Positions 47,403-64,000 are shown, numbered from the stretch's first letter. The stretch: 64,000 nt of DNA from Clostridiales bacterium (GCA_022508345.1 JAFLVK010000001.1:164371-228370); one strand, 5' to 3'. The notes: generated from the sequence alone by a model not told the origin. Program-made: numbers and translations.

Positions 47403-47450
47403 TTCAATTTCTCCATTTACTACCACTATTCCTTAATCCCATATCACAAA

Positions 47451-47725
47451 GTCAGAAGCATTTTGACCCAAAATCCAATTTAGGAAATCTTAACCATTTT
47501 CCCTCTTTTTCTCGCTTAAAATACGACGAATTCGTGCTAAAACTAGGATTTTTTAACCACTTAACATCTTTTCTCGTTTGCATATCGGATTTTTCCCCAA
47601 TTTTCCCAAACACGGAACTGGAATCCTTTACATCCGGTGGAATATAACATATACCCCCATCGAATTCCCCAGATTAAAAAGTTGCAAAAATTACATTTCC
47701 CCAATTTTCAATAAATTGGGGAAAA
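47451..47725. repeat. Direct repeat copy A (~275 bp) at the core/island junction, 3' of module 1
   Basis: Aligns with 52978-53250. The core 47531-47725 versus 53058-53250 looks roughly 80 percent identical by eye (not computed). It contains TTTCCCCAATTT twice direct (47592-47603, 47696-47707) and once inverted (47713-47724). The last pair forms a 12-bp hairpin followed by a U-run on the minus strand. Confidence 0.8.
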
Positions 47726-47823
47726 TAGATATCATGATGTATTGAACTGATTTTCATTGGAATTAAAAATAAACATTTATGATTGACCGCTAGTCAATAA
47801 ACTTGGGGACTTCCTATAATTAT

Positions 47824-49719
47824 TTATTTTGTTTTACCATACTGTTTCATCACATCTCTTAGACATATCTCATTCACTTTATCAAAAAAATTATGATCAA
47901 ACATGCTACCGACAAAATAGTTCTCTATACGCAGTTTATATCGCCCGATACTCATTTGATTTTCTTGATAAACTATTTTATCTCTATAATTAAAAATACA
48001 GAAATCACAATCATAGAATTTAAAGAGTTTATAGATATTTACTTCACCCTCGAACACCTTTTTTAGTTTGCGTATCTTAACATAATCTTCAAATAATGTC
48101 CCTCTGTCAAATGGCAAAATAAAATTGTCAAAATCCATGATATACACATCATCCTTTACAATAACACCATCTACTGTTCCAGAGTGTATAACAATGCTCT
48201 TTATACTATAAAATTTTTTGCTTTTAATTTTTATTCTTTTTTTCTCAAATGCTTCAAAAACGAAGTTCATATTGTTTTTGTAAAAAGAAACAATTCGATT
48301 CAACTGCTTTACATCATCTAAATATTTGACTGATTCTCTTGTTTCTAACTCATGTCCAGTTCTACTTTTACATTCGCAAAAAACGAAAGTATCATTCATA
48401 TAAAACACGGCATCACATTCATATTCTTCCCTATCTACATGATGATGCATCTGCACATACGGAGTTTTGGTTAAATCTAAAAATCTATATAAATTTTTTT
48501 CAAAATTATGTCCTTTGATATCAATATTAATATCTTGACTGTTAAACCTCGAAATGACAGACCTCGCTGCGTGAATCCATTTTGTAATAGAAAGACAAAT
48601 GGCATACTTATTGTTTATTGGAATAAATGGATAATCGTATAAATCTGTCGCACCTTTGCGTAGTATCATGTTATCAAAAACGATTGTCGCACTCTCTACA
48701 GGAATTCCATTTTTTACAAATATATTAATCCATTGCTTTTTAGTCTTACAATAAATGTGATTAGATAGAATTTTTGAAAAAGACACAATATCTTTGTTAG
48801 AGTTATTTTGGCTTATTTTATAAATAATCACATAGGCTTTAATCCAATATTTTATTTTAACACTTTTTATTTCGATGTCTGCACTTTCGCAGTAAAAGTG
48901 CTTATCCAATATTTTTTGACTAGTGTACTCCATCACTTTGGGAGTCAAATTTCTAAACGGTTTAATATAAAAATAATATTCATGAAGCGCGTTATTTTCA
49001 TAGATAAAACTCATTATTTTTTCTTTTATATACGGACTCGTGTACTGTGTGAGCCTTATCTTATCAAGTATAGATAGGTGAACTTCTTTATCATTTATTA
49101 TTTCTAAACCATAAATGTTCTTTTTCCAATAATTATATTTTTCATGCCACATGGAAACGTTGTATGAGTTAATTAAATACTCCATCACGCACCTTTTATA
49201 TTTAAATGGTGACGACAAAGCATCTGCGTCATTTAAACTACACATAAACTTACTATCGCTATACACTTTTTCATTGTATATTAAGGACTTTATTGCTTGT
49301 ATGGTAAGTTCCGCATTTTTTTCATATGCCGTGACGCTGTCTGCATGTTTTCCCTTGAAAAAGTCTTTTGCTTTAGCAGACTCGTATTTTTCAACATTAT
49401 ATGATCCCCAATAAAGTAAAAGCGGCAAAATTAAGTTGGGTGGGACAGCATCGATTTTGCTTTGCAACCTTGCGCATTCCTCAAATATAGCATTTATTAT
49501 GTTTATTTCCTCGAGATAAGCTATAGCTTCTTTTATTTGAAGTTTCTCCAAAATGTCATCAACCAACTTATTGAATTTATGAGTCCCACGAACATCAACT
49601 AAAAAGTCACAACTCTTTAATTCTTTAATATTCTCAAGGAAATTTCCATTTTGAATTAAGTTACATAACTCTTCCGTATCACTATTATCAATAATTCTAT
49701 CTACAGTTTTTTTATTCAT
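47824..49719 (-). CDS. Uncharacterised 631-aa protein with PD-(D/E)xK nuclease-like core
   Basis: AT-rich ORF with a 14-nt gap to the upstream gene. GHNFEKNLYRFL...EYECDAVFYMNDTFVFCECKS fits E...D...ExK. The N-terminal ~400 aa has no motif I recognise. Confidence 0.7.
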   Translation of the reverse strand: MNKKTVDRIIDNSDTEELCNLIQNGNFLENIKELKSCDFLVDVRGTHKFNKLVDDILEKLQIKEAIAYLEEINIINAIFEECARLQSKIDAVPPNLILPLLLYWGSYNVEKYESAKAKDFFKGKHADSVTAYEKNAELTIQAIKSLIYNEKVYSDSKFMCSLNDADALSSPFKYKRCVMEYLINSYNVSMWHEKYNYWKKNIYGLEIINDKEVHLSILDKIRLTQYTSPYIKEKIMSFIYENNALHEYYFYIKPFRNLTPKVMEYTSQKILDKHFYCESADIEIKSVKIKYWIKAYVIIYKISQNNSNKDIVSFSKILSNHIYCKTKKQWINIFVKNGIPVESATIVFDNMILRKGATDLYDYPFIPINNKYAICLSITKWIHAARSVISRFNSQDINIDIKGHNFEKNLYRFLDLTKTPYVQMHHHVDREEYECDAVFYMNDTFVFCECKSRTGHELETRESVKYLDDVKQLNRIVSFYKNNMNFVFEAFEKKRIKIKSKKFYSIKSIVIHSGTVDGVIVKDDVYIMDFDNFILPFDRGTLFEDYVKIRKLKKVFEGEVNIYKLFKFYDCDFCIFNYRDKIVYQENQMSIGRYKLRIENYFVGSMFDHNFFDKVNEICLRDVMKQYGKTK

Positions 49720-49733
49720 TCAATATACCCATA

Positions 49734-50987
49734 TTAATTTAAAGCTGAATTATGGACAATAATCGTCTTAGAACTAATGATTTCTCTCGGTTCTGCGAGT
49801 CTTACAATCTCATACTCAAAGCTGGCCACACCTATTTTTTGTTGATATACAGTGAGATTATTTTTCTTTGCAATTTGCATGAGTCGTTCTTTATTCTCTT
49901 TAGATATATCTTTCCCCATATAAATCCCTGTGGCAAAAGGAAACCATATTAAACCCGGCTCTTCTCCGCCGATTACAATTCTCCATTCTTGCTCATTCGA
50001 ATACTTCGGGTTTTTCATAAGCGTTTGCAGATGTAGTTTTGTTGCCATATCTGGATCATGGGAGGTGTTCTTTATTTCGAACAATGTATCATGGTATTGT
50101 AGAAATTGAAATTTATATGAGTTAAATTTCGGTCTTCGTTCCGTATAAAATACAGGTAATAATCCTTTCAACGCATATACTGAACTTTCAACATCCAGCA
50201 AATCGAATCTTATTCCTTGAGTAAAATCATATCTAATACAAAAGCCACCATAATTGTCCGCATATTCTTCCCACATTTTAGGGTTGTTATTAGTTTCAGT
50301 CAAACTGCAAACATATCTTGCTTTTCGATTTAAATCGATTGTAGACGAACACCATTCCTCACAGTGTGCCTTATACCAATCAAGCAATCCCTGTGCTCTG
50401 CCGCGCTGTGATATTTCTTGATCGAACAGCACAATTTTTTTTACAATTTTCTCCCGTTGTTCTATCGGATACTTTTTCTTTATATATTTTTGTGTTCTCT
50501 TAACATTTAATACTAAATCGTCATTATAACAATGTGCAAAAAATATGTTTCTTACTTCTTCTGGCGTTAATGAATTTTCGTCTTTAGAAAGGTTATCTTC
50601 ATTGTTGACATAAATGTAGGAGGCAAAAACAAACCATTTTGCAAGCCTTTTTATTTTACTTTTCGGCAGGTTCTTGATTGAAAAAGGTAGTCTACAATCG
50701 TATGGATCCATAAATTGTTCAGCCGAAGATACCCAAATACTGTTATCTTCTAACGCTTTGAAATTGTTCGCATTGCAACTTCGATATTTAAACAAACACT
50801 TCGGAACCGTCTTCAGGTGATCCAAAATATATCCTAAATCATCAAACTTTTTTCGCTGCTCGGATATTTTCAGCGAAGCCCAAATAGAATTCGGATCTTC
50901 TGACATTTCTCTAAAATACTCTTCAAGCAACATGTTCCTTATGTATCGTTCAGTTTTTTTGAGTCGATATTTTTGTTTTAACTTCAT
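49734..50987 (-). CDS. DUF2971-like protein
   Basis: CLFKYRSCNANNFKALEDNSIWVSSAEQFMDPYDCRLPF reproduces the DUF2971 N-terminal signature (L.KYRs...l....lw.s....fNDP.E), with a later EQEWRIVIG block. RBS is AAGGAGAA. Confidence 0.7.
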   Translation of the reverse strand: MKLKQKYRLKKTERYIRNMLLEEYFREMSEDPNSIWASLKISEQRKKFDDLGYILDHLKTVPKCLFKYRSCNANNFKALEDNSIWVSSAEQFMDPYDCRLPFSIKNLPKSKIKRLAKWFVFASYIYVNNEDNLSKDENSLTPEEVRNIFFAHCYNDDLVLNVKRTQKYIKKKYPIEQREKIVKKIVLFDQEISQRGRAQGLLDWYKAHCEEWCSSTIDLNRKARYVCSLTETNNNPKMWEEYADNYGGFCIRYDFTQGIRFDLLDVESSVYALKGLLPVFYTERRPKFNSYKFQFLQYHDTLFEIKNTSHDPDMATKLHLQTLMKNPKYSNEQEWRIVIGGEEPGLIWFPFATGIYMGKDISKENKERLMQIAKKNNLTVYQQKIGVASFEYEIVRLAEPREIISSKTIIVHNSALN

Positions 50988-51191
50988 TTATTCTCCTTAG
51001 CATTTCGCTCTCACATTTTTATTATTTTGGTCTATAAATAATGAATGAGTGATATACTTATTGCCATGTGCTTGGATGTGATATTCCCATAATAAATTTT
51101 TTTTACCAATTCTCAAAATGTTCACCACGCATTCTAATAACAATTTATTTTACTGCTATCTCATCGCTTTCGAATTTCATAATATTGTCGA

Positions 51192-51512
51192 CTACCTTCC
51201 ACTTCTACTGCCTACAATATTTTTCTTTTTGTTATTATGGTAATGTCCGTGAAATTGTATAGACTTGCTTTTATTCGTTTTATTGAGACTAATATATGTA
51301 GTAATATTAGTTGTTTTACTAACCGGTTGTCTCATTTCTACTTTTGCAATGTCAATTTCAACTTTGTTGCGATGTATCTCCTGGTTAATTTGCCAATATT
51401 TACTCGGTTCATAAAATTCACTTACATTAGATCTTTTACTACGTAAGCGCTGAATATTTTTATCTGCAATTCTAATTCTCTCTTGTGGTGTTTTATTTTT
51501 AAATATAAACAT
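51192..51512 (-). CDS. Small basic protein (106 aa), unknown function
   Basis: Start moved to ATG 51512 (MFIFKNKTPQERIRI), which has AAGGTGGA 8 nt upstream and removes the overlap with the RNase III-like gene. Lys/Arg/Asn-rich. No homology recognised. Confidence 0.55.
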   Translation of the reverse strand: MFIFKNKTPQERIRIADKNIQRLRSKRSNVSEFYEPSKYWQINQEIHRNKVEIDIAKVEMRQPVSKTTNITTYISLNKTNKSKSIQFHGHYHNNKKKNIVGSRSGR

Positions 51513-51531
51513 TTCTAAATTCCACCTTAAA

Positions 51532-52515
51532 TTATTTCTCATCTTGTTCGAGTACATATAACAGCATTGAGTATGCTGATGCCTTTTTAGCTTCTTTCTT
51601 TAGAGGCGCTGTCTCCCTAAAGCAAATATCATATTCTTCTATACTACATGTACAAGTCCAAAAAGTATTGTTGTGCACGTCCAATTGTTCTTCGAATAAA
51701 TACTCGGGCATCGAAAAATATTCCTTTTGCGCCAATTCCTGCAATTGATTTATTGCATTGTCTAACGATGGTTCGTCGATTTCATCTGCCATAGAGTACA
51801 TCCTCCCACTATCTTCTAGATAGCGATAAACTTGTTTTGCTGCCTCCATTCGGGCTTCATTCTTTGTCATTCCATCGCCTGAAAATTTGTAGCCATCAAC
51901 ATTTACTGTACAATGATAATAATCCCACGTAAACTTAAATCTATAATTCGGCGCCTTGCCAAATTCCTTTTGATGCCACTGTTGAACTAAAGCGACATAG
52001 TTATTGTCCTCAGTGAAACTATTTTGAATATAATGATCAATATCCAACATAAGACCGACTACTTCTTGTATGATTTCAAGATCCCAATTACAGTCCAGTG
52101 TTACAGCTCCTACGATAGCTTCAAATAAATCCTCTTTAACATGAGTATCCTCGGCAACATTTTGCTTAATATCGCCGTTTCCCATTATCAAATATTTTTG
52201 AAATCCGAACAACTCAGTTCTGCTGGCGAGCATTTTGCTTTTCACAAGCCGTTTCTTGATTTCGGTCAGCTTTCCTTCAGTGCGTTTTGAGATAAATTCT
52301 TCTTCCTCAGTAAATTCGCCATAATACTCTATAAGTGTTTTCATTACGGCAATATCAAGAGCTTTATCTCCAATAAACTCCAATACCTCATTATCTTCAC
52401 TTTCTGGATGCTCTTGCGAATAGGATTTTCTGATAAACGCCTGCTGTAACAACATTTTGTTATCAAACTGATATCCAATTTGTTTTTCAATTTCTCTTAG
52501 TTCTTTTTTTGTCAC
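51532..52515 (-). CDS. RNase III-like ribonuclease with two C-terminal dsRBD-like domains
   Basis: RNase III signature NEVLEFIGDKALD and second acidic cluster KEDLFEAIVGAVTLD. dsRBD-like 1 is NYRFKF...GDGMTKNEARMEAAKQVYRYL. dsRBD-like 2 is MPEYLFEE...TAPLKKEAKKASAYSMLLYVL. GTG start with GGAGG 10 nt upstream. Confidence 0.8.
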   Translation of the reverse strand: MTKKELREIEKQIGYQFDNKMLLQQAFIRKSYSQEHPESEDNEVLEFIGDKALDIAVMKTLIEYYGEFTEEEEFISKRTEGKLTEIKKRLVKSKMLASRTELFGFQKYLIMGNGDIKQNVAEDTHVKEDLFEAIVGAVTLDCNWDLEIIQEVVGLMLDIDHYIQNSFTEDNNYVALVQQWHQKEFGKAPNYRFKFTWDYYHCTVNVDGYKFSGDGMTKNEARMEAAKQVYRYLEDSGRMYSMADEIDEPSLDNAINQLQELAQKEYFSMPEYLFEEQLDVHNNTFWTCTCSIEEYDICFRETAPLKKEAKKASAYSMLLYVLEQDEK

Positions 52516-52736
52516 AAAAAAATACCTCCGTTGTAAAATTTACACGAAGGTATAATAATAGCCTAACGATAAGAGTATAGTATTCCCCTCTAAATTTCGT
52601 TAGGCACCATATATTAAAATAAATTACATAAATCATTTTTATTTGAATTAAGCCACTGCCAACCCAATTCAAATAACCCTATTTTATGTTCAGCATTTTA
52701 ATCTATTATACCCTCGGGTTAGATTTATTTTAGCAT

Positions 52737-52765
52737 CTCTTAACTAATTTGTCAATAGATGCATC
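52737..52765 (-). promoter_or_regulatory. Near-consensus promoter (TTGACA-17-TAAAAT) for module 1, giving a ~215-nt leader
   Basis: Minus strand reads TTGACA aattagttaagagatgc TAAAAT. The leader contains hairpins atttgaatt/aattcaaat (52643-52676) and gcctaacga/tcgttaggc (52561-52604). Confidence 0.55.
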
Positions 52766-52977
52766 AAAATTATATGTTGTTTTACGTAAATTCAAAACAA
52801 CTTGAACTAACGACATAATATTCATCATTGTTGCTTTTACATAATTAAGACTACCATTTACATAGCAATCGAACAATAAGTTCATTACCGTTCAATGCTG
52901 CCACTATGTTTTTTGTTGTTATGCAAAATTTCTTTAGAGATTTTGATACCATATTTTGTTATATATTGTCGAAAAAT

Positions 52978-53250
52978 GTCAGAAGCCTTGACATCATAAA
53001 TTCGATTTTGAATATTTTAACCATTTGACATCATTTTGCACAAAAAAGACGGTAAACTCGTGATAAAATTAGGATTTTTTAACCACCTTACCAATTTTCT
53101 CGTTTGCACAACGGATTTTTCCCCAATTTTCCCATATACGGAACAGGAATCCTTTACATCATTTAAGATGTAACATATACCTTATCGGATTTGCCAGATT
53201 AAAAAGCAGCAAAAAATAACTTTCCCCAATTTATTGAGAAATGGGGAAAG
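52978..53250. repeat. Direct repeat copy B (~273 bp), 3' of module 2 and upstream of module 1
   Basis: Aligns with 47451-47725. The hairpin tttccccaattt...aaatggggaaa (53221-53249) starts 7 nt after the stop of 53256-53852 and is followed by UUAUUUUUU on the minus strand. Confidence 0.8.
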
Positions 53251-53255
53251 TTTGA

Positions 53256-53852
53256 TTAGTTGTTATCTTCAATATTCTTATAATGTGCTTTGTATACCAC
53301 GGTATTACCCGTGACGTTATCCAACCGTACATTTCTAAATTTTTTATATCTAATTTTGTTATCTATTAATGTAAAAACTACGGTAACATAAGTCTCTGTC
53401 TCTCTTATGGCCGGAAAATTCGGAAATATAAAATAACCCATAATTGCCGAATATGCCGGAACTACAAGCGGCACCTGTAGTCGTAATGATTTACTATCCT
53501 GTGGTATGCCGCTTCTCTGACCAAACGTTAGATTAAACGGTGCGATATCATAAATTGAACCTACTGTTTCAGCATGATACTGCATATTTTCATATTCTAT
53601 GTAAATATCTGCAATTGTACCACCCACCGAAGAATTATTGTAAAAACTTAATCTTAAATCCACCAAAGTTTTAAAACCCACACCTTCAAATACAGCATCT
53701 GCATATGACAATGTGCCAAAATTCTTCTTTAGCCTAACACCTATTTTAGGTTTTGAATGCCGAAAGTGTATAATACAAGAAACGACTGCTGCAATTGCTG
53801 AAACTGCAGCACAAATCGAAGAAATCATTGCTATTAACTCTGACGTTTTCAT
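53256..53852 (-). CDS. N-terminally membrane-anchored 198-aa protein, unknown function (last gene of module 2)
   Basis: One strong TM helix (LIAMISSICAAVSAIAAVVSCII) followed by a beta-rich soluble domain. RBS AAGAGG. Confidence 0.65.
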   Translation of the reverse strand: MKTSELIAMISSICAAVSAIAAVVSCIIHFRHSKPKIGVRLKKNFGTLSYADAVFEGVGFKTLVDLRLSFYNNSSVGGTIADIYIEYENMQYHAETVGSIYDIAPFNLTFGQRSGIPQDSKSLRLQVPLVVPAYSAIMGYFIFPNFPAIRETETYVTVVFTLIDNKIRYKKFRNVRLDNVTGNTVVYKAHYKNIEDNN

Positions 53853-53903: not shown

Positions 53904-55355
53904 TTAACTGTTATTGATTTCATCGTACTTTTTTAATAAAAAGTCACTAATTGTATTGTCGATTTTCCTTTGTTGCAATAATTCAATTATTTCCTCATCC
54001 GTTATATGTATTATCCAGCCACGCCCATCCTTTACTGTGTCCATTTCACATTGAATAAATTTTTGCGGATCATCCAAATATCTACAGCAAATAATACCGA
54101 ATTTTCCTCTATTTGCAGAAAATCTCCCTGACATTTGATCCAATTCTGGGTTTGCAATGTCTTTAGAATAATTCTTACACTCTACCATAATTAAACTGCA
54201 TGGTACATTATAGGTCGTACCTAAATAATGTAAGAATCCACTCTCAGCAATATTATTGAACACAATATCTATGCGCTTTCTGCCGTCATTTATCTCCTTC
54301 TCGATTTTGGGATGAGCAATATATGGATAGAAAAGCAACTCTAAAATTCCGCTAATCAGTCGATGATACCTTGTCGCATGCTCACTTCCCGGTGGTATAG
54401 ATTTAAGCGCCTCTATAAGATTATCGATAATTTCTTCTATATCTTCATCGCTTATATCATCTAATTCTCCATATGATATCTTTTGAATAATCTCATTTTT
54501 AAATTTGCTCAGCACATCAGGATTTTCTTTTGTAAAACGTGATAACCAATTTTTTGTTAAAAATTCGCCACGACTTTCGTAATCTGCTACAATGTCTTTC
54601 TTACAAACCTTAGCATTTTTTAGTGATCCATTTTTGTCGTATGTTTTTCGAACCAAATGCGTGTCCTCTTTTAAGTTTTTCTCTTTTAAAAATTCAAGCA
54701 CATATTGATTCAAGAATTCCTGTGCGTTGTAATATTTTGCGTCAGAAACTAAATTTTTAGGAAACAATAGATATCTTTTCCCATCTATTACCAGTGTTTC
54801 GTGGTGTCCTCTATCCCAACGTGTAGCAGTTTTATTCCAATAGTAGCCAACCTCAGCATTAGTTAACTTTATACCCAATAACTCACACTGTTCCTTAGTG
54901 TACTTAATAAGTGGATATTTTATAATATTAGCAACCATATCAGAAACCTTGTCCTTATCCACACCTTCGACGAACAATCTTAAATCTTCAATATGTTCTG
55001 CTACCCCATCATTTATTGCGCAACTTTTCTTGATTGCTTCAAAAATCGTTCGCGCGTTTACTCGTCCAACGCCTTTACCCGCCGGCTTGCCACGACTCAT
55101 TCCTAAGCATATCTCATTAACTTCTCCCAAATGATTAAAAAGCTCAAACGCACGTTCTTCATCATATTGTAATAAGTATAAAAATCTATTAAAAAAGGTT
55201 TCTATGTACTCATTACATTCAGCTAAAAAAGCATCTTCCTTCCGGGAAATATAATAAGGATCGAAAAACATATATGTGTCGAGTTCTATTTCATAGTCAT
55301 AAAAATCCAATTCCAGTTGAGACTTCTTAAGCCCTAATTTCTCACTTATTTTCAT
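53904..55355 (-). CDS. 483-aa protein with novel N-terminal region and C-terminal restriction-endonuclease-fold (Mrr/NERD-like) domain
   Basis: C-terminus EHATRYHRLISGILE...GRKRIDIVFNN...SLIMVECKNYSKDIANPELDQMSGRF fits E...D...ExK. Start set at ATG 55355 after GGAGGAATT. Confidence 0.7.
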   Translation of the reverse strand: MKISEKLGLKKSQLELDFYDYEIELDTYMFFDPYYISRKEDAFLAECNEYIETFFNRFLYLLQYDEERAFELFNHLGEVNEICLGMSRGKPAGKGVGRVNARTIFEAIKKSCAINDGVAEHIEDLRLFVEGVDKDKVSDMVANIIKYPLIKYTKEQCELLGIKLTNAEVGYYWNKTATRWDRGHHETLVIDGKRYLLFPKNLVSDAKYYNAQEFLNQYVLEFLKEKNLKEDTHLVRKTYDKNGSLKNAKVCKKDIVADYESRGEFLTKNWLSRFTKENPDVLSKFKNEIIQKISYGELDDISDEDIEEIIDNLIEALKSIPPGSEHATRYHRLISGILELLFYPYIAHPKIEKEINDGRKRIDIVFNNIAESGFLHYLGTTYNVPCSLIMVECKNYSKDIANPELDQMSGRFSANRGKFGIICCRYLDDPQKFIQCEMDTVKDGRGWIIHITDEEIIELLQQRKIDNTISDFLLKKYDEINNS

Positions 55356-55368: not shown

Positions 55369-57171
55369 TTATAATATATCAGCAATAGTAATTTTTATAT
55401 ATTCGCGCAAATACTTAAATGGGAATGGCACAACTGTTAACTGTCCGTTGCGAACAAATGTAACCGACATTAATGGCAGCAAATCATCAAACATAACAGT
55501 TGCATTTTTGTGCGCTTCTATTAATCTAATATTAGCTGCTCGATTAATTTTTCTCTTCATTCCTTCTCCGATTTCGCCGACAAAATAATATTGTATGCCA
55601 TCAATTTTAAACATCTTAATATCTAAGCACGCTGATAGTAGTTTTTCTCGCATTGCTTTACCACGCAGCTTTGTATTTCCGCTTTCAAGTTCTGCTTTGA
55701 TACTATCAATCATCGGAATAGTAAACCAATCGGTATCTTTAATAATGTTAATTTCATTTTTCGAGTTTTTTATAATACCGTTAATCTTTTCCGATCTTAA
55801 TTTGGCATCCTCAAATATTTCAACACATTCGCTATATTCTGTTAAGTTAAACAAATCTAACTTCGTTTCTCTAAATTCAAATGTACCATCTGGATGTATA
55901 TTCATAAAGAAAGATCTATCCTCATGCGTCACGCCAAAAGAAATGTTTTCATTGTAACCAAGCTTGTCCCATTCAAACAAAGAAATGCGTTTTGTCTTGA
56001 TGTCGTCCTTAATTAACAATTCGTTAACTACCGTTTTAATCGCAAATTCAGCACAGTCGACGAAATCTTCCAATGTGATATGCTGAATAACCGCATCGTT
56101 ATATTCTTCATAAGCATCCTCATTTCCGCCATAATACTCGGCATTATGAATAACGCATATATTTAAACTTTGTTTGTTGATTTTTTTGCTTAAGTTTGCA
56201 TTTATACTGTATGTATCATATAAAAGTTGTTGGATTTCCGAACAAAATCTTTTTGAGTATTCGTCAGATATTTTATCAACAATGTTTATTGACTTGGAAG
56301 TCAAAATCGTCTCGATACGTTTTTTATTTTCTCGTTTTTCCACATGTGAATAATCAAGTGAAGAATACTCCTCTATCTTTTCGAGCTTTATTTGCGCATA
56401 TTTTGCATGCTTGCCATTAAACTCATTTAAAACTGAATACAAAACGCCTAGCTTACAACAATTAAATTTGTCGATGTCTTCCAAATTTAAAAATGGAATT
56501 TCAATCTTTTTGCCTTCTATTTGTCTTAGTATAAAGGCACCACCTTTATCATCTTTCAACTTGCGTTTTAATGTATAATGTGCTGAAATGACATATTGTG
56601 GATATTCGTCAAATTTTCGCTTTTCGAACACTATATGATTGCGTAATTTAATTGATGTAAAAGTATGAACATTGAACAATAAATGAAAGTCTTTCGTTAT
56701 TCTAATGTCTAGGCAAGGAATTTGCCATATGATTTCATTAGTTTTTTCCTTAGATTTTTTCAACCATTGGGGATGAAAACAGTATAAGTGTCCAGTTAAG
56801 TTATTAAACTTCAAGTTTGTACTCTCAAAATTTCCCATGCCATTTAACAATAATTGCAACGAGATATAATGAGGAAGTTGAGAAAAATTGAGTTGTTGTA
56901 TAGACAAGTTTTCAGATCCTTCGCAACTGTTTAGGATTAGGAGTAATGAATGTCTGTTTTCTTCATTATGTTTCATTAATACATATAACGATTTGCCTTT
57001 TTCAAAATACAATGAATAAACAGAATTTCCAAGGGATGGTGCATCTAATATAAATGCACCACTCCGAATATAATTCTCAGATGTTGATATTTGAAAAACA
57101 TCAAATTGTTTATTTAATTCTGTTATATTCAAAGAGTAGTTTACTCTATTAGTACTAATTGGAAAACTCAT
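55369..57171 (-). CDS. 600-aa protein, possible catalytically inactive Argonaute/PIWI-like protein
   Basis: No catalytic motif found. The C-terminal TVVPFPFKYLREYIK resembles the PIWI C-terminal [ST]VP.P..YA motif. LNICVIHN...YEEYNDAVIQHI resembles a MID strand-helix. The gene overlaps the helicase gene by 17 nt and has AAGGAG 8 nt upstream of its ATG. The fold assignment is inference only. Confidence 0.6.
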   Translation of the reverse strand: MSFPISTNRVNYSLNITELNKQFDVFQISTSENYIRSGAFILDAPSLGNSVYSLYFEKGKSLYVLMKHNEENRHSLLLILNSCEGSENLSIQQLNFSQLPHYISLQLLLNGMGNFESTNLKFNNLTGHLYCFHPQWLKKSKEKTNEIIWQIPCLDIRITKDFHLLFNVHTFTSIKLRNHIVFEKRKFDEYPQYVISAHYTLKRKLKDDKGGAFILRQIEGKKIEIPFLNLEDIDKFNCCKLGVLYSVLNEFNGKHAKYAQIKLEKIEEYSSLDYSHVEKRENKKRIETILTSKSINIVDKISDEYSKRFCSEIQQLLYDTYSINANLSKKINKQSLNICVIHNAEYYGGNEDAYEEYNDAVIQHITLEDFVDCAEFAIKTVVNELLIKDDIKTKRISLFEWDKLGYNENISFGVTHEDRSFFMNIHPDGTFEFRETKLDLFNLTEYSECVEIFEDAKLRSEKINGIIKNSKNEINIIKDTDWFTIPMIDSIKAELESGNTKLRGKAMREKLLSACLDIKMFKIDGIQYYFVGEIGEGMKRKINRAANIRLIEAHKNATVMFDDLLPLMSVTFVRNGQLTVVPFPFKYLREYIKITIADIL

Positions 57172-60100
57172 GAATCAAACTCCTTATTTCTCTAAATGCC
57201 TTTACACTGACCTGCGGTTTTTTATAACCGAAAAACAAACATGGAACATCTACAATTGTGACTTCGCCGGAACTCCGAACAATTGGACGTTCTTCTTTGG
57301 TCAAAATGTTAATAGTCAAAACGCATTTGCATCCACATTTTTTTGCTTTACAAATTATTTTTGATCTCATTTTTTCTTTATCTATAGTCATAGATTCATG
57401 CCAGTGTTTAAAATCAACATATATAGGTGCGTCTTTAACCTTAAAATCAAAACACTCAAATAAGTCATTATCGTTTATTTCATCTAGGTCTATGTCAAAA
57501 TAACGCTTTAAGAGATACCTGCCAACGAATTCACCCAATGCGCCTTTATATATGTTGTTATATAAGGCTGGGGACACAATAAAATTACCCGGTTTAAATG
57601 TGGTTGCATAGTGTTTTTCATTAAATTGATCTTTTACACCTTCTATTTCCATTAAAACATTTAGTCGCGCATCGTGGGCTGACACTTCATAGTTAAAATG
57701 ACTTCTTTGCTGGAATGAAACTAATATGTTATTAAAATCTGATTCTTGCTGGTAAAATATGCGATCTTGTACTTGCGGCAATTTTACATACAGCTGATTT
57801 ATCATAAAATTTTTATCCATATCAATTTCATTTCTAGAGAATGTTGGATTTCGTAACACCATTTCTCGCATTTCCTTCCAATCCTTCATGCTATCATCAG
57901 TCCAATCCTCTCGCAAAATGTTCTGTATAAATTTATTAACACGAACAGATAGTAAAGAGGCCGTATTTTCGGCGATATTGCTATTGTTGATACATGATGT
58001 TGATTGCACCTTACTCATCAGTGCCAAAAACTCAGGATTAAACAAATTACTATTAATAATTGTTTTATCAATATTTTCATGCAATCTACTATCTGCTAGA
58101 ATATAAATTTTTCTTTTCTTCTGATTGGTTCTGCAGATACGACCTATTGCTTGAATTATGGTCCGTGTGCAAAGCAGTTTAACATCCTGCAGGTCATATA
58201 AATTTTTAACCCATTCTGAACGTGCATGACCAGTCATGTAGCATCTAAAAGCCTTTTTTATATGGGAGAACGCTTCCGTCATTGAAAGCTGTCCATTCTG
58301 CTGTAAAAACTCAACATGGAAAATGTATTTGGCAAAGTCCTCCTCTATCAAATGTTCGTCTAGTCGAACCAATAAATTTGTTGGTTTGTCTAAATATATA
58401 GCATCAAAATCTTTCTCGTTTCTAGAATCAAAATCATTTACACCAATTAGCCGTTTTCTATCACCTTGCGGTATAGGATATTGTAAGTTTTGTCCAGCTC
58501 CAATAGTTTGATAAACGGAGATGACGAATAATCTTTCCCCTTTTGCTAAACGCGAAATAATATGTTCTTTTCGAGCATCGTATTCATCTCCATCCAACTG
58601 AATAACTGTATCCTCTTGAAAAACCTCTTTTTTGTTTTCTTCCCATATGTGTTTGAAAATTTTCAACAAAAAATCAATATCAAGCATTGCATTATTTTTT
58701 CGAGGATGTCTGGTTAATACACATAAGAATGATTGAATATCATCATGTTGAACGAAAAATTTAAAAGCGGATGCTACTCGACAGTATCTTTTCTTATCGT
58801 AATTATTACTGTCATCGGAGAACATTATTTCTAAATTTTCATAAACATCATAAACGCGTTCTGTCTTCAAAACTTCTTGCCATGCAGATAGACCATAATT
58901 TGCCTCTGAATTTTCACCAATGATGGACACATCAATATCTATATTGTCATAGCCTTTTGTAGCAATTGCATATTGATCGCTTAACCGCTTCAGATCTTCT
59001 TGCGAGACCTTGCAAAATGCAGTCTTCATTTTTGCTTGTAAATAATCCATGTCATAATTTCCTATATTCGTTGGAATTGTAGCCGTTGCTGAAATACCAA
59101 TTACCTTGGCACGCTCGCAAATTTTCAACAATATTTTTTCTGGAGTATTTTGAAAAGAATACATCATTATTTTAGACTGCATATCATGAAAGGTGTCGTT
59201 CTCAAATGCGTAATATCTGAAACCCCGTTCATAAAACGACAGGTCATAGTTTGCTCCCTCAATGTTGGTAGACCTTTTGGGCGATGCTGATAGTATTTGT
59301 AGTGTAAGGTATTCTATCGAATCATTTGACAATCTGAATTCTGACAAAACCGATCTTATTGCTGATTCCATCGAAAAATCGTCTTCGCCAGTTTTATGTC
59401 TCTCCCGCTTCGTTTCCAGATAATTTATTGCAAGAATGCTGACGCCAATTTGAAAATACGTAATAAATCCGCGCAATTTGCCAAGCATAACATGGATATT
59501 TTGCGAATCATGCTGCGGCTTTTTATCCGCAAACTTTATTTCATTTAGTCTTAACTTTTCATTACTGTATGTATAGATGAAAGATTTATTACCATTCAAT
59601 ATCGAATGAAATTGGTGATCTTGAAATAAAAAATTCTTATTTTGATCTTCTGCTTCCACACTAGTTCTATGACTAAATTTTAAAGAAAAATCTTTGTATA
59701 ATACCTCTGCTTTTGACCTTATATCATCAATAATACCATCAAGTGACTGATCGGCGAATCTACTAGCTTGTCTCTGTCGCGATGCGGTTGTTAAGACAGA
59801 GGGAAATTCAGTGGTTTGCAAACCAGAATAAATTTCTCTAAACAATTCAATATAATCAATTTTATCTCGTAACCCATTTTCTATAATATTGTTTAAAATC
59901 GTTGCCTTTGTTGCGTCAAACTCATCTATAAATATTACTGCATCTTTAATTATGTCTGAATTGTAAAACATATATGACGGTTCAACAATGGTTGAATTTC
60001 TAGAAAGAAATTTATCCATGCTCATAAAAATAATTTGTTTGCTTTGTGTAAATACAGCAGGATATAACCTGCCTAACCATTGCCAACGCTCACTTGTTTT

Positions 60101-60625
60101 TATGGCATAAAGCTTATCTTTAACGGATGTAAATTCTTTATTAAGATACGCTTGTATTAAGCCTCGGAATGCGGGCTCTGTTTTTTCGCGAAGATTTTTC
60201 TCGATGGTCTCCACTAATTGTTTAGTCGTATTATCAGATTTTTGTCTTTTGATAAAAAGAAGATCTTGTTTAAGTGCTCTATATTCGTCTGTTTTTGTTA
60301 TTTCAGATGGCATACTTTTTTCTAATTTGGCATTCCAGTTGGTTAATACAGTATCAATATTGGAATCCAAAAAGACAAATTTTTCATCAAAAAGCACTTG
60401 TTCATTACGTCTAGCAAACCTTTCTTTTAATTCATCAATCGGCAGGTTCTTTTTTTGCGTGGTAATAAAAAACACTTTTTTCTTATCAAACTTATGCGAC
60501 AGCACTGCATCACAAATATAGTCTAAAACAGAATGTGTTTTACCAAATCCTGTTGGCATATCTATTAGTAATAACCCGTTCGATTTGTCATTATTCTCGC
60601 AGTATTTTTTTATGATTTGATACAT
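57155..60625 (-). CDS. SF2 (DinG/DdmD-like) helicase with C-terminal PD-(D/E)xK nuclease-like domain
   Basis: Motif I LIDMPTGFGKTH, II VIFIDEFDAT, III VIGISATATIP, V-like QTIGAGQNL and VI IIQAIGRICR. The C-terminus is GALGEFVGRYLL...ECFDFKV...IYVDFKHW. Start set at ATG 60625 after GAGGTG. Confidence 0.85.
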   Translation of the reverse strand: MYQIIKKYCENNDKSNGLLLIDMPTGFGKTHSVLDYICDAVLSHKFDKKKVFFITTQKKNLPIDELKERFARRNEQVLFDEKFVFLDSNIDTVLTNWNAKLEKSMPSEITKTDEYRALKQDLLFIKRQKSDNTTKQLVETIEKNLREKTEPAFRGLIQAYLNKEFTSVKDKLYAIKTSERWQWLGRLYPAVFTQSKQIIFMSMDKFLSRNSTIVEPSYMFYNSDIIKDAVIFIDEFDATKATILNNIIENGLRDKIDYIELFREIYSGLQTTEFPSVLTTASRQRQASRFADQSLDGIIDDIRSKAEVLYKDFSLKFSHRTSVEAEDQNKNFLFQDHQFHSILNGNKSFIYTYSNEKLRLNEIKFADKKPQHDSQNIHVMLGKLRGFITYFQIGVSILAINYLETKRERHKTGEDDFSMESAIRSVLSEFRLSNDSIEYLTLQILSASPKRSTNIEGANYDLSFYERGFRYYAFENDTFHDMQSKIMMYSFQNTPEKILLKICERAKVIGISATATIPTNIGNYDMDYLQAKMKTAFCKVSQEDLKRLSDQYAIATKGYDNIDIDVSIIGENSEANYGLSAWQEVLKTERVYDVYENLEIMFSDDSNNYDKKRYCRVASAFKFFVQHDDIQSFLCVLTRHPRKNNAMLDIDFLLKIFKHIWEENKKEVFQEDTVIQLDGDEYDARKEHIISRLAKGERLFVISVYQTIGAGQNLQYPIPQGDRKRLIGVNDFDSRNEKDFDAIYLDKPTNLLVRLDEHLIEEDFAKYIFHVEFLQQNGQLSMTEAFSHIKKAFRCYMTGHARSEWVKNLYDLQDVKLLCTRTIIQAIGRICRTNQKKRKIYILADSRLHENIDKTIINSNLFNPEFLALMSKVQSTSCINNSNIAENTASLLSVRVNKFIQNILREDWTDDSMKDWKEMREMVLRNPTFSRNEIDMDKNFMINQLYVKLPQVQDRIFYQQESDFNNILVSFQQRSHFNYEVSAHDARLNVLMEIEGVKDQFNEKHYATTFKPGNFIVSPALYNNIYKGALGEFVGRYLLKRYFDIDLDEINDNDLFECFDFKVKDAPIYVDFKHWHESMTIDKEKMRSKIICKAKKCGCKCVLTINILTKEERPIVRSSGEVTIVDVPCLFFGYKKPQVSVKAFREIRSLIHEFSN

Positions 60626-60785
60626 AAAACACACCTCATCTTATTTGTACAAAAATTGTTCTACCATCGATTTGGGTTTCCTCTCATAAGAGTGAAAAAT
60701 AATTATCAGGAATTCCCTTCGATAAAAGTAGATATATAATATACCTATACAAATATATTTTTGTTAAGCACAATTAAAAATATTA

Positions 60786-60815
60786 TAAAAAGCTATTGCT
60801 CAATTACAATAGCTT
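60786..60815 (-). terminator. Rho-independent terminator ending module 3, upstream of module 2
   Basis: Minus sense aagctattg-taattgag-caatagctt followed by TTTTTAT. It begins about 15 nt after the stop at 60830. Confidence 0.7.
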
Positions 60816-60829
60816 CATATTGATATCGC

Positions 60830-61597
60830 TTAGGATAAAGTTTTATTTTTTATATGATAGGCTATATTACGTGCCTCGCAAAACTCTATTACTTGGTGAG
60901 CTGCATTGTTGAAAAACTCTTTGTGCTGTTTATATGTTGTTGCCACCTTGTTGTAGTGAATACGCCCAAAGATTATTTTGTCAACAAAGCTTATTTCTTC
61001 TAATATTTGTGCCAAATCTTGCTCGCACATATTAGGTGTAGGATACGGCTCAACGCTTACCCATGTCCTAAACCCTGCATCGTGTAACGCACGTAGAGCG
61101 GCTATTCTTTCAGGATACGGTGCTGTGTTACACTCATATTGCACGCGAAAATGATCATCCAAGGATACCAAGGTAATACCATATTCATTTTCATGAGAAT
61201 AGTTGACGAGTTCAATTGGCAAAAGACCTTTTGTCAATACAGTGCACTTTATACCGTTATCATTTAGTGTACCTATTATTTGTAGACTTAAATTTTTTAC
61301 TTCGTCCTGACCATACATAAAAGGATCTGTCATAAAGGACAATTGGACCGATTTAATTTTATTCTTGTATTTAGGTATTTCCTTGTTCAGTATTTCAAGA
61401 GCATTCCCGACAAGCTTGGGCTCACACCAATCTTCATAAGTTTTAACTTGACCAAATCTCTTCTTCATCATCATCGCATAACAAGGATATTTACAACCAT
61501 GTGAACAGCCTTGAACATGATTTATTGTATAATCCCCATATTCCACACCTGTTTTATATAAAAGAGATTTTCGGTTGATCTTTTTCACTTTTTCCAC
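60830..61597 (-). CDS. Radical-SAM-like (SplB/COG1533-like) protein with atypical three-Cys motif CX3CX3C
   Basis: NHVQGCSHGCKYPCYAM resembles the NPY.GC.HGC.YCYA cluster motif but has one extra residue. Downstream blocks FMTDPF, VLTKGLLP, RIAALRALHDAGFRTWVSVEPYP follow the COG1533 layout. 13-nt overlap with the TcmP-like gene. Confidence 0.7.
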   Translation of the reverse strand: MEKVKKINRKSLLYKTGVEYGDYTINHVQGCSHGCKYPCYAMMMKKRFGQVKTYEDWCEPKLVGNALEILNKEIPKYKNKIKSVQLSFMTDPFMYGQDEVKNLSLQIIGTLNDNGIKCTVLTKGLLPIELVNYSHENEYGITLVSLDDHFRVQYECNTAPYPERIAALRALHDAGFRTWVSVEPYPTPNMCEQDLAQILEEISFVDKIIFGRIHYNKVATTYKQHKEFFNNAAHQVIEFCEARNIAYHIKNKTLS

Positions 61598-62786
61598 CTC
61601 ACAGAAACAGTTTTCCCGCGTCCTTCAGACATAAAAGTTGTTGCCTTTCCATTGTTTGTGGTTTGAGGATTGCGAATTACTTCGATGATTCCAGCTTTTT
61701 CCCATGTTTTTAATATGTCTTTGATGTGATTCGTAGCGCAGATTGCTCCATATTCAACAAAAAAGTTCGCCAAAGCCTCATGTAGTGAAATTGCTGTTGT
61801 ATATTTAGAAAAATGGCGCCTTGCTTTTTCTTTGATGTCATCTATGTCTATTATCTCATTGTCAAAGGTCTCTTCAAATAGCGACATTTGTCCATAATTT
61901 TGAATATCTCTAAGGTTTTGCCAACGATTATAAATATTGTCTACCATCAACAGACATCCATCTTTGTGATTAGTGGCATGAACCATTCTGTACTTTGGTC
62001 TTTGTCCTGGTTTTATTCTAAGTGGCAAATTCAAAACATATTTGTAACTATGACTTAGTCTTCTACAATATTCGTCGGCAAATGTTTTCTCTGCTTCATA
62101 GCCGTCGATTTTTGACGCTTTATAATCTTTAATAATTTCTTGCCAATAATCTCCACCTGCAATATCGTTAAGGTCTTGTATTGACTTTTCGGAAGCGACA
62201 AATCTACTGGGTTCATATTCGACTAGGTCATCAAACAATTCCTTATCATCGAATCGTGTTCCTAAAGCATTACAAGCCTCTCTGATAAAACCGAATGAGT
62301 TCAAATTTATTAGCAACTCAATTGAATTAAAGCCACTTCTTGCAAAACCGTCAAACTGCCAACAATTAAGTGCTTTTATACCATATGGATCAATGTATAA
62401 GAACACATTACAATTTCTTTTTTTTTCAAGATGTCGAGAATATTATCCTCATATTTACCCGAATAGATATTTACATACTGATATCCGCACAAATTTTCGC
62501 GTAAATCATCAGCATAATTTAGATCAATAAAATTGGTGCTGATATCAACAGCATCCATAGTTGTGCTACTCACGCAATTTTGTATTATATCTAACGCAAT
62601 CAGTGGCGAACCAGGTTTGCCATCGTCAAACTTACCCTTTCCGGCAAAGCAATCGACGTAAACCAACGGTTTGTATGTATGTAAAATTTTTTGAACGTAC
62701 GGTCTAAAATAACAACCAAGTAGTTCGTCCTTTACCTCAGACCATGCCTTCTTCTCTTTGAAAAAATCATCATTATTTTTCGACAC
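61585..62786 (-). pseudogene. TcmP-like (three-Cys-motif partner protein, methyltransferase-fold-like) gene split by a frameshift at an A9 tract
   Basis: The N-fragment 62376-62786 (KKAWSEVKDELLGCYFRPYV...LVYVDCFAGKGKF...GSPLIAL) and C-fragment 61585-62406 (FLYIDPYGIKAL...) are adjacent frames. The C-fragment frame stays open upstream through EKKRNCNV into the run of nine T (62418-62426, A9 on the coding strand). A 1-nt change there fuses them into one protein of about 400 aa. Confidence 0.7.
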
Positions 62787-62808
62787 TTAATAATCTCCTC
62801 TTTCGCAT

Positions 62809-63267
62809 CTATTTGTCTAGTACAACTACTCCTTTTTCAGTTTCCAGGAGTATCCCTTCTAGCATGCCGCCTTGATTTATGTGGCCGACAACAATTTCGT
62901 CCGCAAGTTCGATAACTTTGAGGTTGCGAATCCGAGCACGTTCGCGAGTTACAATGGGGATATCATCATCGAAGGGTGATACAATCAACATTTGCCCGCT
63001 TTCCACTGCTGCACGGTATTTGGCAGGACACTTGACAAAGATACTTCTTGCCAACACCATTACAATTGGACTTGTCCCCTGCAACAAAATATCCAAGATG
63101 TCCATTTCCAATCTGCTTTGAAAGCCGGAAATTACACACCTCTTTTGCTTTTTAATTTCACTTACCCAGTCATAAGATGCCAGAACAGATTTGCTACTGT
63201 ATTTATCCGAGCAAAGAAAAGCTATCTTTTGAGTATTTAATAGTTGTATATTACCTATTGATTTCAT
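62809..63267 (-). CDS. DprA/Smf-like (SLOG superfamily) Rossmann-fold protein
   Basis: KIAFLCSDKYSSKSVLASYDWV...RCVISGFQSRLEMDILDILL...SPIVMVLARSI...GQMLIVSPF follows the DprA core layout (ivGsR...vvSG.A.GiD...tiaVla.g...llsp). Confidence 0.6.
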   Translation of the reverse strand: MKSIGNIQLLNTQKIAFLCSDKYSSKSVLASYDWVSEIKKQKRCVISGFQSRLEMDILDILLQGTSPIVMVLARSIFVKCPAKYRAAVESGQMLIVSPFDDDIPIVTRERARIRNLKVIELADEIVVGHINQGGMLEGILLETEKGVVVLDK

Positions 63268-63292
63268 TTCGTTAAATAGCTACTTAACACCG

Positions 63293-64000
63293 TTAATCGT
63301 TTTCGTCTTCAACGCCGAGCCGATATTTGATATCGTAGTTGATAATATAATCCAATTCTTCCTGTGTAAAGCCATATGCTGTCGCCAAGTTTATATCAAT
63401 TAAATCCATAGTGTTTTTACTGAGCGCCTTATTGTATGTAATAGTCTCGTTTGCACCACGTGTGACACTGTTTATAGTGTAGTGTTTTGCATTAGAAAGC
63501 AACTCGCTTTCCATGGTATTTGATAATTCTACAATAGAGGCTACATCAATGGAATAATAGTTCATTCTAAAACCAAATAGCATGTAGTCTTTAAAATTGA
63601 AGTGATCATAATTTACACAGTAATACCACCAGAAAATGTTAGAGTTCAGCGCAGCACTTATTACTCTTGAATCACATTTAACTTCAAAACTTTTTGACTT
63701 GTTACTCAAAGACTCTGTTTGAAAAGGAGAATTGAGAATAGTTATCCAATATCCACCACCTGCTGTTCTATAATAAACGGCATTTTCAACATTGTGTTTA
63801 TCTAGATAGAGGTTAATAGGTCTGTGCCTATATAATTTATCTTCGATAGCCAACTCGATTTTATTGCCTAGTTTTAAGAAGTGGTCAACTTTTGCTTGAT
63901 TCGATTTAATATATGCTACTCCCTCAAATAAAAAACGACGTGTATGAGAATACCATCTTTTTACACCCGATGTATAAAAAGCGCGTTGATAACCATGTAT
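63293..64000 (-). CDS. C-terminal (TaqI_C-like specificity) part of an N6-adenine DNA methyltransferase or type IIG restriction-modification enzyme; 5' end beyond the window
   Basis: My translation shows the frame is open from 64000 (IHGYQRAFYTSGVKRWY...) through the ORF-track segment. IFWWYYCVNYDHFNFKDY and the tail LATAYGFTQEELDYIINYDIKYR are typical of the TaqI-class C-terminal target-recognition domain. The catalytic part is not visible. Confidence 0.6.
   Translation of the reverse strand: MHGYQRAFYTSGVKRWYSHTRRFLFEGVAYIKSNQAKVDHFLKLGNKIELAIEDKLYRHRPINLYLDKHNVENAVYYRTAGGGYWITILNSPFQTESLSNKSKSFEVKCDSRVISAALNSNIFWWYYCVNYDHFNFKDYMLFGFRMNYYSIDVASIVELSNTMESELLSNAKHYTINSVTRGANETITYNKALSKNTMDLIDINLATAYGFTQEELDYIINYDIKYRLGVEDEND

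Follow-up and report, generated by a model that had tools for sequence, protein, structure and literature searches.

We analysed a 64,000-nucleotide (nt) stretch of one strand of a Clostridiales bacterium assembly (GCA_022508345.1, JAFLVK010000001.1:164371-228370), hereafter the window, with a focus on the block of genes at 47403-64000. The guanine–cytosine (GC) content of this block is 0.331 compared with 0.460 for positions 1-47402, and the 1-kb segments of the two parts do not overlap in GC, the maximum within the block (0.376) lying below the minimum of the preceding core (0.393; P = 3e-9, Mann–Whitney test). The best single change point was placed at ~47200 (100-bp resolution), locating the break at ~47.2-47.4 kb, and the correlation of tetranucleotide frequencies was 0.91 between the two halves of the core, falling to 0.54-0.70 between the core and the block. 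An initial annotation had described an abrupt drop into AT-rich sequence after 47402, judged by eye, and the computed values agree with it. The minus strand carries every long open reading frame (ORF) of 47.8-64 kb. We conclude that the block, which extends from 47403 past the window end to at least ~69.9 kb, is very probably a horizontally acquired chromosomal defence island of three co-oriented operons, the second of which encodes a homologue of DdmDE, a system that the initial annotation had left unrecognised. The genome that carries it is that of an uncultured gut member of the Clostridia and is related to Christensenella.

The left edge of the island is set by the intrinsic terminator of the core AraC-GH39 gene (44835-47327), an 11-bp stem followed by a T-run at 47375-47402 on the plus strand, with a predicted fold of -17.3 kcal/mol (z = -5.5). 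All island genes described below are on the minus strand, and each of the operons ends in a minus-strand hairpin with a U-tract: at 47696-47724, 3' of g1, for operon 1 (fold z = -3.4); at 53221-53249, 3' of g5, for operon 2 (-16.3 kcal/mol, z = -5.0); and at 60789-60816, 14 nt past the stop codon of g9, for operon 3 (-14.8 kcal/mol, z = -3.1). The three hairpins thus identify three real transcription units, and the arrangement proposed in the initial annotation, with all genes on the minus strand in three terminator-separated units, holds. As to its count of 12 genes, two of the ORFs are halves of one frameshifted gene.

The core of operon 2 is a pair of overlapping genes. The first, g8 (57155-60625), encodes a 1156-amino-acid (aa) protein of the DdmD type, with a superfamily 2 (SF2) helicase and a C-terminal PD-(D/E)xK nuclease. 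It matched the structure-derived sequence of Lactobacillus casei DdmD (LcDdmD, PDB 9ix4) along its full length (residues 8-1126, E = 4.6e-66), as well as Vibrio cholerae DdmD (VcDdmD, 6e-47) and the DdmD model of PADLOC (1e-47). The Walker A motif PTGFGKT and the helicase motif DEFD are visible in the N-terminal part of the translation. At the C terminus, the motifs GALGE, ECFD and VDFK align to E1059, E1082, D1085, D1100 and K1102 of VcDdmD and to the equivalent positions of LcDdmD. Mutation of these residues abolishes plasmid elimination in V. cholerae (10.1101/2024.05.10.593530), and g8 retains all five of them.

The second gene of the pair, g7 (55369-57171), overlaps g8 by 17 nt and encodes a putative 600-aa Argonaute of the DdmE type (long-C clade). 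The two genes stand in the order D then E and are enclosed by one promoter region and one terminator. The match of g7 to LcDdmE (PDB 9iw3) was 3e-17 in two stretches, that to the PADLOC DdmE model 1.7e-8 and that to VcDdmE 1e-4, limited to the C-terminal end; the Pfam Piwi model gave no match to g7. An exhaustive search retrieved relatives in 820 clusters at 50% identity. Many of these are 590-620 aa long and aligned to g7 in one piece, while others of 650-735 aa were split near query residue 500, the site at which LcDdmE carries a PIWI insertion domain of ~107 aa. From these lengths and split matches, g7 appears to lack the insertion domain and is predicted to be the common compact form of the family rather than a unique protein. 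The PIWI region had no invariant acidic residue in an alignment of 43 family members, in which a C-terminal PFPFKYLREY motif was conserved, and this absence fits a catalytically dead Argonaute.

On the basis of sequence, we thus assign g8 and g7 as a DdmDE homologue. The pair shares with the systems of V. cholerae (VSP-II) and L. casei (PDB 9ix4, 9iw3, 9ixm and 8u3k) the adjacent and overlapping genes in D-then-E order, a DdmD of ~1150-1190 aa with N-terminal SF2 helicase, C-terminal PD-(D/E)xK domain and five catalytic residues, and a putative Argonaute relative in whose family no conserved DEDX-type acidic set was seen. It differs from them in the length of g7 (600 aa vs. 687 and 715 aa for known DdmE), in its low identity, with only the C-terminal end of VcDdmE being detectable, in its gut Clostridia host and in two further genes of the operon, one for a DUF8370 nuclease and one for a small protein whose N terminus is hydrophobic. 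Between the systems of L. casei and V. cholerae, too, the identity is just ~14%. Here, as for the other genes of the island, we infer the activity from homology. By analogy with the characterised L. casei and V. cholerae systems (10.1101/2024.05.10.593530 for V. cholerae), g7, catalytically inactive by homology, would load short 5'-phosphorylated DNA guides and, once loaded, would bind complementary plasmid DNA. It would then recruit the helicase-nuclease g8, opening the auto-inhibited dimer of the latter, and g8 would move along the displaced strand, unwinding and degrading the invading DNA.

The operon continues 13 nt after g7 with g6 (53904-55355), a 483-aa protein in which a novel N-terminal domain precedes a PD-(D/E)xK nuclease domain at the C terminus. 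It matched the PADLOC candidate PDC-M36A (4e-39) and, by precomputed assignment, the Pfam family PF28123 (DUF8370), which has >900 matches. In its motif GRKRID363...E392-C-K394, D363 and E392 are invariant and K394 is at least 90% conserved. The AlphaFold 2 (AF2) model was confident (predicted local distance difference test, pLDDT, 88), and its structural matches were weak and of restriction-type nucleases: FokI, MspJI, N.BspD6I and EcoT38I. After a further 51 nt follows the last gene of the operon, g5 (53256-53852), encoding a 198-aa protein whose hydrophobic N-terminal stretch looks transmembrane-like when the translation is judged by eye; it had no match in Pfam, NCBIfam or PADLOC.

We considered whether these two genes, instead of hitch-hiking, work together with DdmDE in an extended variant of four genes. 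The short gaps within one terminator-bounded operon speak for this, as do two loci elsewhere: the closest g6 homologue (69% identity, locus L006) likewise follows a DdmD-like gene, and a homologue in Senegalia (L005) follows a type III Mod/Res pair, whose Res is a helicase-nuclease. However, the first of these loci, which also contains Dcm methylases and Vsr, has no DdmE, and its DdmD-like protein is just 30% identical to g8. Other g6 homologues stand alone after helix-turn-helix (HTH)/Bro-N genes (L007-9) or follow Gabija on a Bacillus plasmid, and the two domains of DUF8370 also occur apart: the N-terminal ~290 aa alone on small Bacillus plasmids (H26-H32) and the nuclease domain fused to a Dcm DNA cytosine methyltransferase on Bacillus plasmid NZ_CP023246.1 (L125 3819-5507). 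No counterpart of g5 was found beside the DUF8370 homologues in the loci examined, and the characterised DdmDE systems operate with two proteins. With contexts this varied, g6 was rejected as a specific third DdmDE component, and we consider the four-gene variant very unlikely. Because of the varied contexts and the separately occurring domains, g6 is read, from sequence comparison, as a promiscuous stand-alone defence gene and not a dedicated DdmDE subunit; g6 and g5 are most likely independent add-ons to DdmDE.

The DdmD-like helicase-nuclease gene of L006 (5478-8876; PADLOC DdmD, 8e-31) is placed between the Dcm methylase/Vsr genes and the DUF8370 homologue. Since no DdmE accompanies it, DdmD-type proteins may also work outside Argonaute pairing.

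Operon 3 crosses the window end. Its upstream part could be read from a metagenome contig of the European Nucleotide Archive (ENA; ERZ27293309:k141_281813, locus L001), which is 100% identical to the window and adds 9.3 kb past its end; the window is also identical to Logan contigs of SRR13619862. Within the window, g12 (63293-64000) comprises the C-terminal 236 codons of a gene that continues to ~66547 in window numbering. The full 1084-aa protein matched the REase_MTase_IIG model PDLC03628 (5e-253) over residues 1-1081, with additional Eco57I and MmeI_Mtase matches, and this end-to-end match marks the product as a putative Eco57I/MmeI-like type IIG restriction-methyltransferase. The methyltransferase specificity domain noted in the initial annotation is therefore present in sequence, although it is the tail of this long gene and not a domain or fragment of its own. 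Upstream of the type IIG gene, at ~66549-69902, lies a gene for a 1117-aa HKD-SNF2 helicase with PLDc_2, SNF2 and Helicase_C domains, matching the model C3a139 'HKD+Snf2' at 1.7e-53 and also DrmD models. The two genes confirm the earlier view that the island runs off the window.

Downstream of g12 follow g11 (62809-63267), a 152-aa DprA-like protein of the SLOG type (DNA_processg_A 2.5e-5, below cutoff; PADLOC PsyrA 4e-13), and the three-Cys-motif partner (TcmP) gene g10 (61585-62786). The latter is split into ORFs of 136 and 273 aa, which matched positions 2-121 and 131-256 of TIGR04474 (PDC-M30A, 4e-10), by a frameshift in an A9 run at 62418-62426. A run of A10 would rejoin the gene into a single ORF. 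As the same A9 sequence was found in three assemblies, the data point to phase variation or to slippage during transcription and not to an assembly error, and TcmP may be off or attenuated through the frameshift. The last gene, g9 (60830-61597), encodes the TcmP partner, a radical-SAM/DUF5131-like protein of 252-255 aa (Radical_SAM 4.7e-9; DUF5131 2e-6); it also matched rSAM_mob_pairB (2e-15, far under the cutoff), PDC-M41B (6e-7) and PDC-M30B (4.5e-6). The pairing of a helicase-nuclease of the HKD-SNF2 type with a type IIG enzyme would imply discrimination of self from non-self by methylation.

Class 1 DISARM combines a DrmD SNF2 helicase with the DrmMI methylase, and the SNF2-HKD gene upstream indeed matches DrmD, while g12 matches DrmMI weakly. 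However, no DrmA, DrmB (DUF1998) or DrmC homologue is present among the operon 3 genes, which rules out class 1 DISARM. The operon differs from both DISARM and a plain type IIG system in carrying the SLOG, TcmP and radical-SAM genes, which are part of neither.

Operon 1 is preceded by the best promoter-like site of the region (52727-52755, minus strand), a TTGACA-17-TAAAAT site with a TG element that agrees with the consensus at 11 of 12 positions. Its first gene, g4 (51532-52515), encodes a 327-aa RNase III with a Ribonuclease_3 match and two dsrm stretches, that is, two double-stranded RNA-binding domains (dsRBDs). The catalytic signature is intact, EVLEFIGD and DLFEAIVGA aligning to Aquifex RNase III (PDB 1yyk). 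The score against TIGR02191, 152 bits, lies under the 166-bit cutoff for the rnc equivalog, and g4 differs from the bacterial class 1 RNase III, the rnc equivalog with its one dsRBD, both in this score and in the second dsRBD. It belongs to a large family, in which at least 1730 clusters have lengths of 325-390 aa and gut metagenomes are the main source; searched for as a phage or plasmid gene, the two-dsRBD RNase III gave partial, low-identity matches only. The next gene, g3 (51192-51512), encodes a small basic protein of 106 aa that appears as the partner of g4; its start is M16 of a 121-aa ORF, and the 106-aa form is called on a public contig. It had no family match.

The closest g4 homologue (68% identity) was found in another contig (L038, also represented by L039), where it is followed by a 97-aa gene (L038 8002-8295) that is 80% identical to g3 and then by a different gene of 597 aa; the latter was considered as a homologue of g1 or g2 and showed no similarity to either. 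Promoter, RNase III and small gene make up one block, 75% identical at the nucleotide level between L038 and the window (window 51223-52770), which includes the promoter-like site. The small protein (80% aa identity) is more conserved than the accompanying RNase III (68%) between the two loci, and g3 has no detectable relatives beyond L038/L039.

In 80 further metagenomic loci with RNase III homologues, g3 was absent and other partners stood downstream, often close. They included a 468-aa family with a HicA-like C terminus in nine loci, 15-27 nt away, Thg1-like proteins in three loci, SymE in one and a protein with an RNase H1 N-terminal domain in one, as well as a 529-aa family (16 ORFs) and a PRTase. 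Farther away, the neighbours were both conflict genes and housekeeping genes. A variable gene directly downstream of a two-dsRBD RNase III would be a pattern typical of conflict systems. In one locus (L078), an RNase III homologue (1369-2433) was found 2.4 kb from an HKD-SNF2 gene (4833-7433) that is 67% identical to that of operon 3, so that these types of gene are neighbours in more than one place.

The two remaining genes of operon 1 are of a different nature. After a gap of 204 nt, g3 is followed by g2 (49734-50987), a 417-aa DUF2971 protein (PF11185, 1.8e-8) that matched the PADLOC single-gene candidate PDC-S31 at 3e-33. The last gene, g1 (47824-49719), encodes a 631-aa protein with a PD-(D/E)xK core in its C-terminal half, assigned from the motif and the AF2 fold. 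It had no sequence match in Pfam, NCBIfam, PADLOC or the PDB, and its family is rare, with 19 clusters only among 5.8 billion proteins; the canonical D...ExK core, D436...E449-C-K451, is invariant in the 19 homologues. In Foldseek searches with the AF2 model (pLDDT 86.6), the best structural matches were Upx, a single-protein anti-phage nuclease with dual PD-(D/E)xK domains (9wuf, E = 1.9e-4), and McrC (probability 0.98-0.99), and the modelled fold of g1 resembles both. Upx is, however, 1212 aa long and just 9% identical to g1, with a low TM-score (0.31), and g1 has no McrB partner beside it and no sequence-level match in PADLOC. Elsewhere, g1 homologues are found among different defence genes: near SIR2, near a helicase with GmrSD, or together with HNH, Dcm and HATPase genes. 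No RNase III or DUF2971 was found next to them in the contexts examined, and g1 was rejected as a partner of either.

One could read operon 1 as a single four-gene system in which RNase III and g3 sense or process the double-stranded RNA of an invader and then hand on to swappable effectors, DUF2971 and the g1 nuclease. The intact catalytic signature of g4 is consistent with such a role, as are the retention of the promoter-RNase III-small gene block in L038 in front of a different 597-aa gene and the variable, RNA-related partners that often closely follow RNase III in the metagenomic loci. We nevertheless consider this reading unlikely: the g1 homologues keep no company with RNase III or DUF2971 in the contexts examined, PADLOC treats DUF2971 as a single-gene candidate, 204 nt separate g3 from g2, the g3 partner accompanies only the closest RNase III homologue, and the neighbours of the RNase III family include housekeeping genes. 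We found no description in the literature of an RNase III-based defence of this type, nor of PDC-M36/S31 or DUF8370. Because the g1 homologues occur elsewhere without RNase III or DUF2971, operon 1 is more probably a row of independent modules than a single system.

Taken over the three operons, the PADLOC run that the initial annotation had suggested returned DdmD, DdmE, PDC-S31 (g2), PDC-M36A (g6), PDC-M30/M41 (PDC-M30A for g10 and PDC-M30B/M41B for g9) and PsyrA. The PDC systems are computational candidates only, the g9 and g10 matches are weak, and TcmP is frameshifted here. The PD-(D/E)xK cores that had been noticed in the proteins at 47824-49719, 53904-55355 and 57155-60625 were verified as the motifs of g1, g6 and g8, and family matches confirmed the RNase III-like, SF2 helicase and radical-SAM-like proteins. 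The proposal of three nucleic-acid-targeting modules is correct as to three operons, but a minimum of six gene sets can be separated within them, homologues of g1 and g6 occurring without the neighbours they have here. The overall interpretation as a defence island stands, with DdmDE in operon 2, the type IIG, HKD-SNF2, SLOG and TcmP/radical-SAM genes in operon 3, and PDC-S31 and the McrC/Upx-like nuclease in operon 1.

The nearest genomes to the window are metagenome-assembled genomes (MAGs) of uncultured Christensenella and Clostridia, with 53-74% identity in AraC-GH39 and 67-85% in the neighbouring ATP-binding cassette (ABC) ATPase. The synteny of ABC and AraC-GH39 genes was kept in nine relatives, and none of the nine had any island gene downstream of AraC-GH39 (up to 10 kb searched; 1.5-2.7 kb in three short loci), which upholds the accessory status of the island. 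What lies downstream differs in each relative. In one (L010), an HsdR fragment occupies the island site together with a tyrosine integrase and a PIN protein, and another (L015) has a tyrosine integrase and a serine recombinase there; the site has therefore been used repeatedly. The hotspot proposed earlier is supported to the extent that elements bearing an integrase or recombinase sit at the same site, and is limited by their number, two loci in distant relatives. A strain without operon 1 was sought by exact-protein look-ups of g5, g11 and AraC-GH39, which gave the same strain only. With its low-GC block of unrelated immune genes beside a conserved core gene, and with relatives holding other content at the same site, some with integrases, the locus resembles known chromosomal defence islands and hotspots. 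It differs from them in having no recombinase, tRNA or short att repeats in 26 kb and in internal borders formed by a diverged repeat of ~278 bp.

This repeat, which we call the junction element, is non-coding and present in two copies on the minus strand that bracket operon 1 as a 77% identical direct repeat: copy A at 47448-47724 and copy B at 52975-53249. Each copy opens with the hairpin that terminates its upstream operon, the first 29 nt of copy A (47724-47696) being the operon 1 terminator and 53249-53221 of copy B that of operon 2. Two further copies, at L038 314-592 and 10261-10424, flank the low-GC cassette region with the RNase III homologue in L038/L039. The conserved core spans ~165 nt and has the sequence GGGGAAAAATCC-N4-TGCAAACGAGAAAA... 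Exact 22-30-nt patterns of the core were not found in viral contigs or in metagenomes of the Joint Genome Institute (JGI), distant blastn searches found no copy in plasmids, and among ~120 fetched loci (including the AraC-GH39 relatives and the 80 RNase III loci; blastn and nhmmer) only L038/L039 contained it. The core 47 kb of the window likewise has no copy. As an RNA, the element was rejected, with no Rfam match at E <= 1 and weak RNAalifold results without covariation on both strands; as a small gene it was rejected likewise, its only ORF being broken by one-nucleotide indels. Two Logan contigs from an independent assembly of SRR13619862, L004 (ending at window 47608) and L002 (starting at 52966), break inside or at the edge of the junction copies, which could reflect repeat-induced fragmentation or strain heterogeneity.

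The bracketing of operon 1 by the repeat fits its separate insertion: the operon may have entered as a separate cassette beside an already resident operon 2, leaving the junction copies on its two sides. We infer the order and mechanism of insertion from the repeat and from the differences among the units, which have GC contents of 0.317, 0.328 and 0.384 and differ also in tetranucleotide usage. The assembly by successive insertions put forward in the initial annotation is supported by this evidence but not proven.

Integrons and tandem integrative elements offer a comparison. A conserved element at the 3' end of a cassette, in the same orientation, is found likewise in integron attC sites and in the att repeats left by accretion of integrative and conjugative elements (ICEs) and cis-mobilizable elements (CIMEs), and the junction element resembles these in starting with a hairpin and bracketing an inserted gene set. 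It differs in being much longer (165-280 nt) and conserved in sequence, not structure; the cassettes here are multi-gene and carry their own promoters, no integron integrase or other recombinase was seen, and four copies are known. An integron cassette array consists of an IntI integrase, an attI site and attC sites of 57-141 nt whose folded structure is conserved. With no integrase seen, an element of 165-280 nt and no consensus fold, the locus was rejected as such an array. A tentative and quite improbable idea is that the junction element, of ~165-280 nt, is the recombination site of a cassette capture process in which a trans-acting recombinase moves multi-gene defence operons with their own promoters into tandem arrays in these Clostridia; such a site would be an analogue of integron attC without being related to it in structure. 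As a companion to it, the two-dsRBD RNase III and its small protein may be a new immune module triggered by double-stranded RNA and equipped with swappable partners.

Alternatively, a single event could have brought in the whole AT-rich block as the cargo of an integrated mobile element, for example an ICE, an integrative and mobilizable element (IME) or a degraded prophage, whose recombinase would be found past 73.3 kb. All genes are co-oriented, GC remains low past the window end and the right boundary was not found, and two relatives carry integrase-bearing elements at the same site. Set against this are the 278-bp direct repeats that delimit operon 1 internally, the compositional differences between the units, the independent distribution of individual genes elsewhere and the lack of any mobility, conjugation or phage structural gene in family library scans of the 26 kb of island sequence. 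A single acquisition of this kind thus has a real chance of being correct, although we hold it to be the less likely course. That the region is a native and merely AT-rich housekeeping stretch, including the cell's own RNase III, is exceedingly improbable. The catalytically intact g4 would suit a native enzyme, but it scores under the equivalog cutoff and has an extra dsRBD, no syntenic relative has the region, defence families dominate among its genes and its edge is a sharp compositional step.

The acquired defence island is thus the reading we retain, and its composition, gene content, homology, conserved catalytic residues, absence from relatives and repeats are direct observations. Several points weigh against it. 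The 26 kb of island sequence are without integrase, transposase or tRNA; the initial annotation had seen no integrase or transposase, and neither the window nor the 9.3 kb beyond it, to 73.3 kb, contained any, so that the recombinase it had suggested looking for beyond 64 kb did not appear there. The GC content has risen no higher than 0.35-0.42 by 73.3 kb, the position of an FMN reductase gene, and the right boundary was not reached; to locate it, genes downstream of AraC-GH39 in eight relatives were compared with the window and its 9.3-kb extension, and no match was obtained. The identity of g8 and g7 to the characterised DdmD and DdmE is low. The RNase III family adjoins housekeeping genes in some loci, and the relatives are distant (<=74% aa identity), so the hotspot is drawn from two loci. 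The junction element, finally, is known in four copies from two loci, and these may belong to one organism because the L038 contig and the window contig are both in metagenome ERZ27293309 and have the same core GC; it could be an ordinary lineage-specific intergenic repeat.

Three observations concern the surroundings of the island. The part of the core beside it (35000-47000) has a GC content of 0.39-0.45, below that of the first 34 kb (mostly 0.44-0.54), and contains sugar-transport and glycosidase genes that are syntenic in relatives. A 1203-aa protein outside the island (32656-36267, minus strand), for which the initial annotation had also proposed a PD-(D/E)xK core, had no match in Pfam, PADLOC or PDB sequences. 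No Rfam families were found in the region.

For the most part, the locus is typical of defence islands, with a main system that was known before and a few uncharacterised side features. It brings together, in one place, several further candidates: DUF2971/PDC-S31, the TcmP/radical-SAM pair, the Upx/McrC-like nuclease and the two-dsRBD RNase III. The junction element and the RNase III family with its swappable partners, both known from contextual evidence, are the parts that could become interesting, and if the former were a recombination site, this would explain how islands of this type are built without a resident integrase. Operon 2 is a natural and testable combination of DdmDE with a DUF8370 nuclease. 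Its assignment places a DdmDE-type, Argonaute-guided anti-plasmid system in an uncultured lineage of gut Clostridia, and the presence of DdmDE in these bacteria bears on the barriers to plasmids and gene transfer in the gut microbiome and on the genetic tractability of such organisms.

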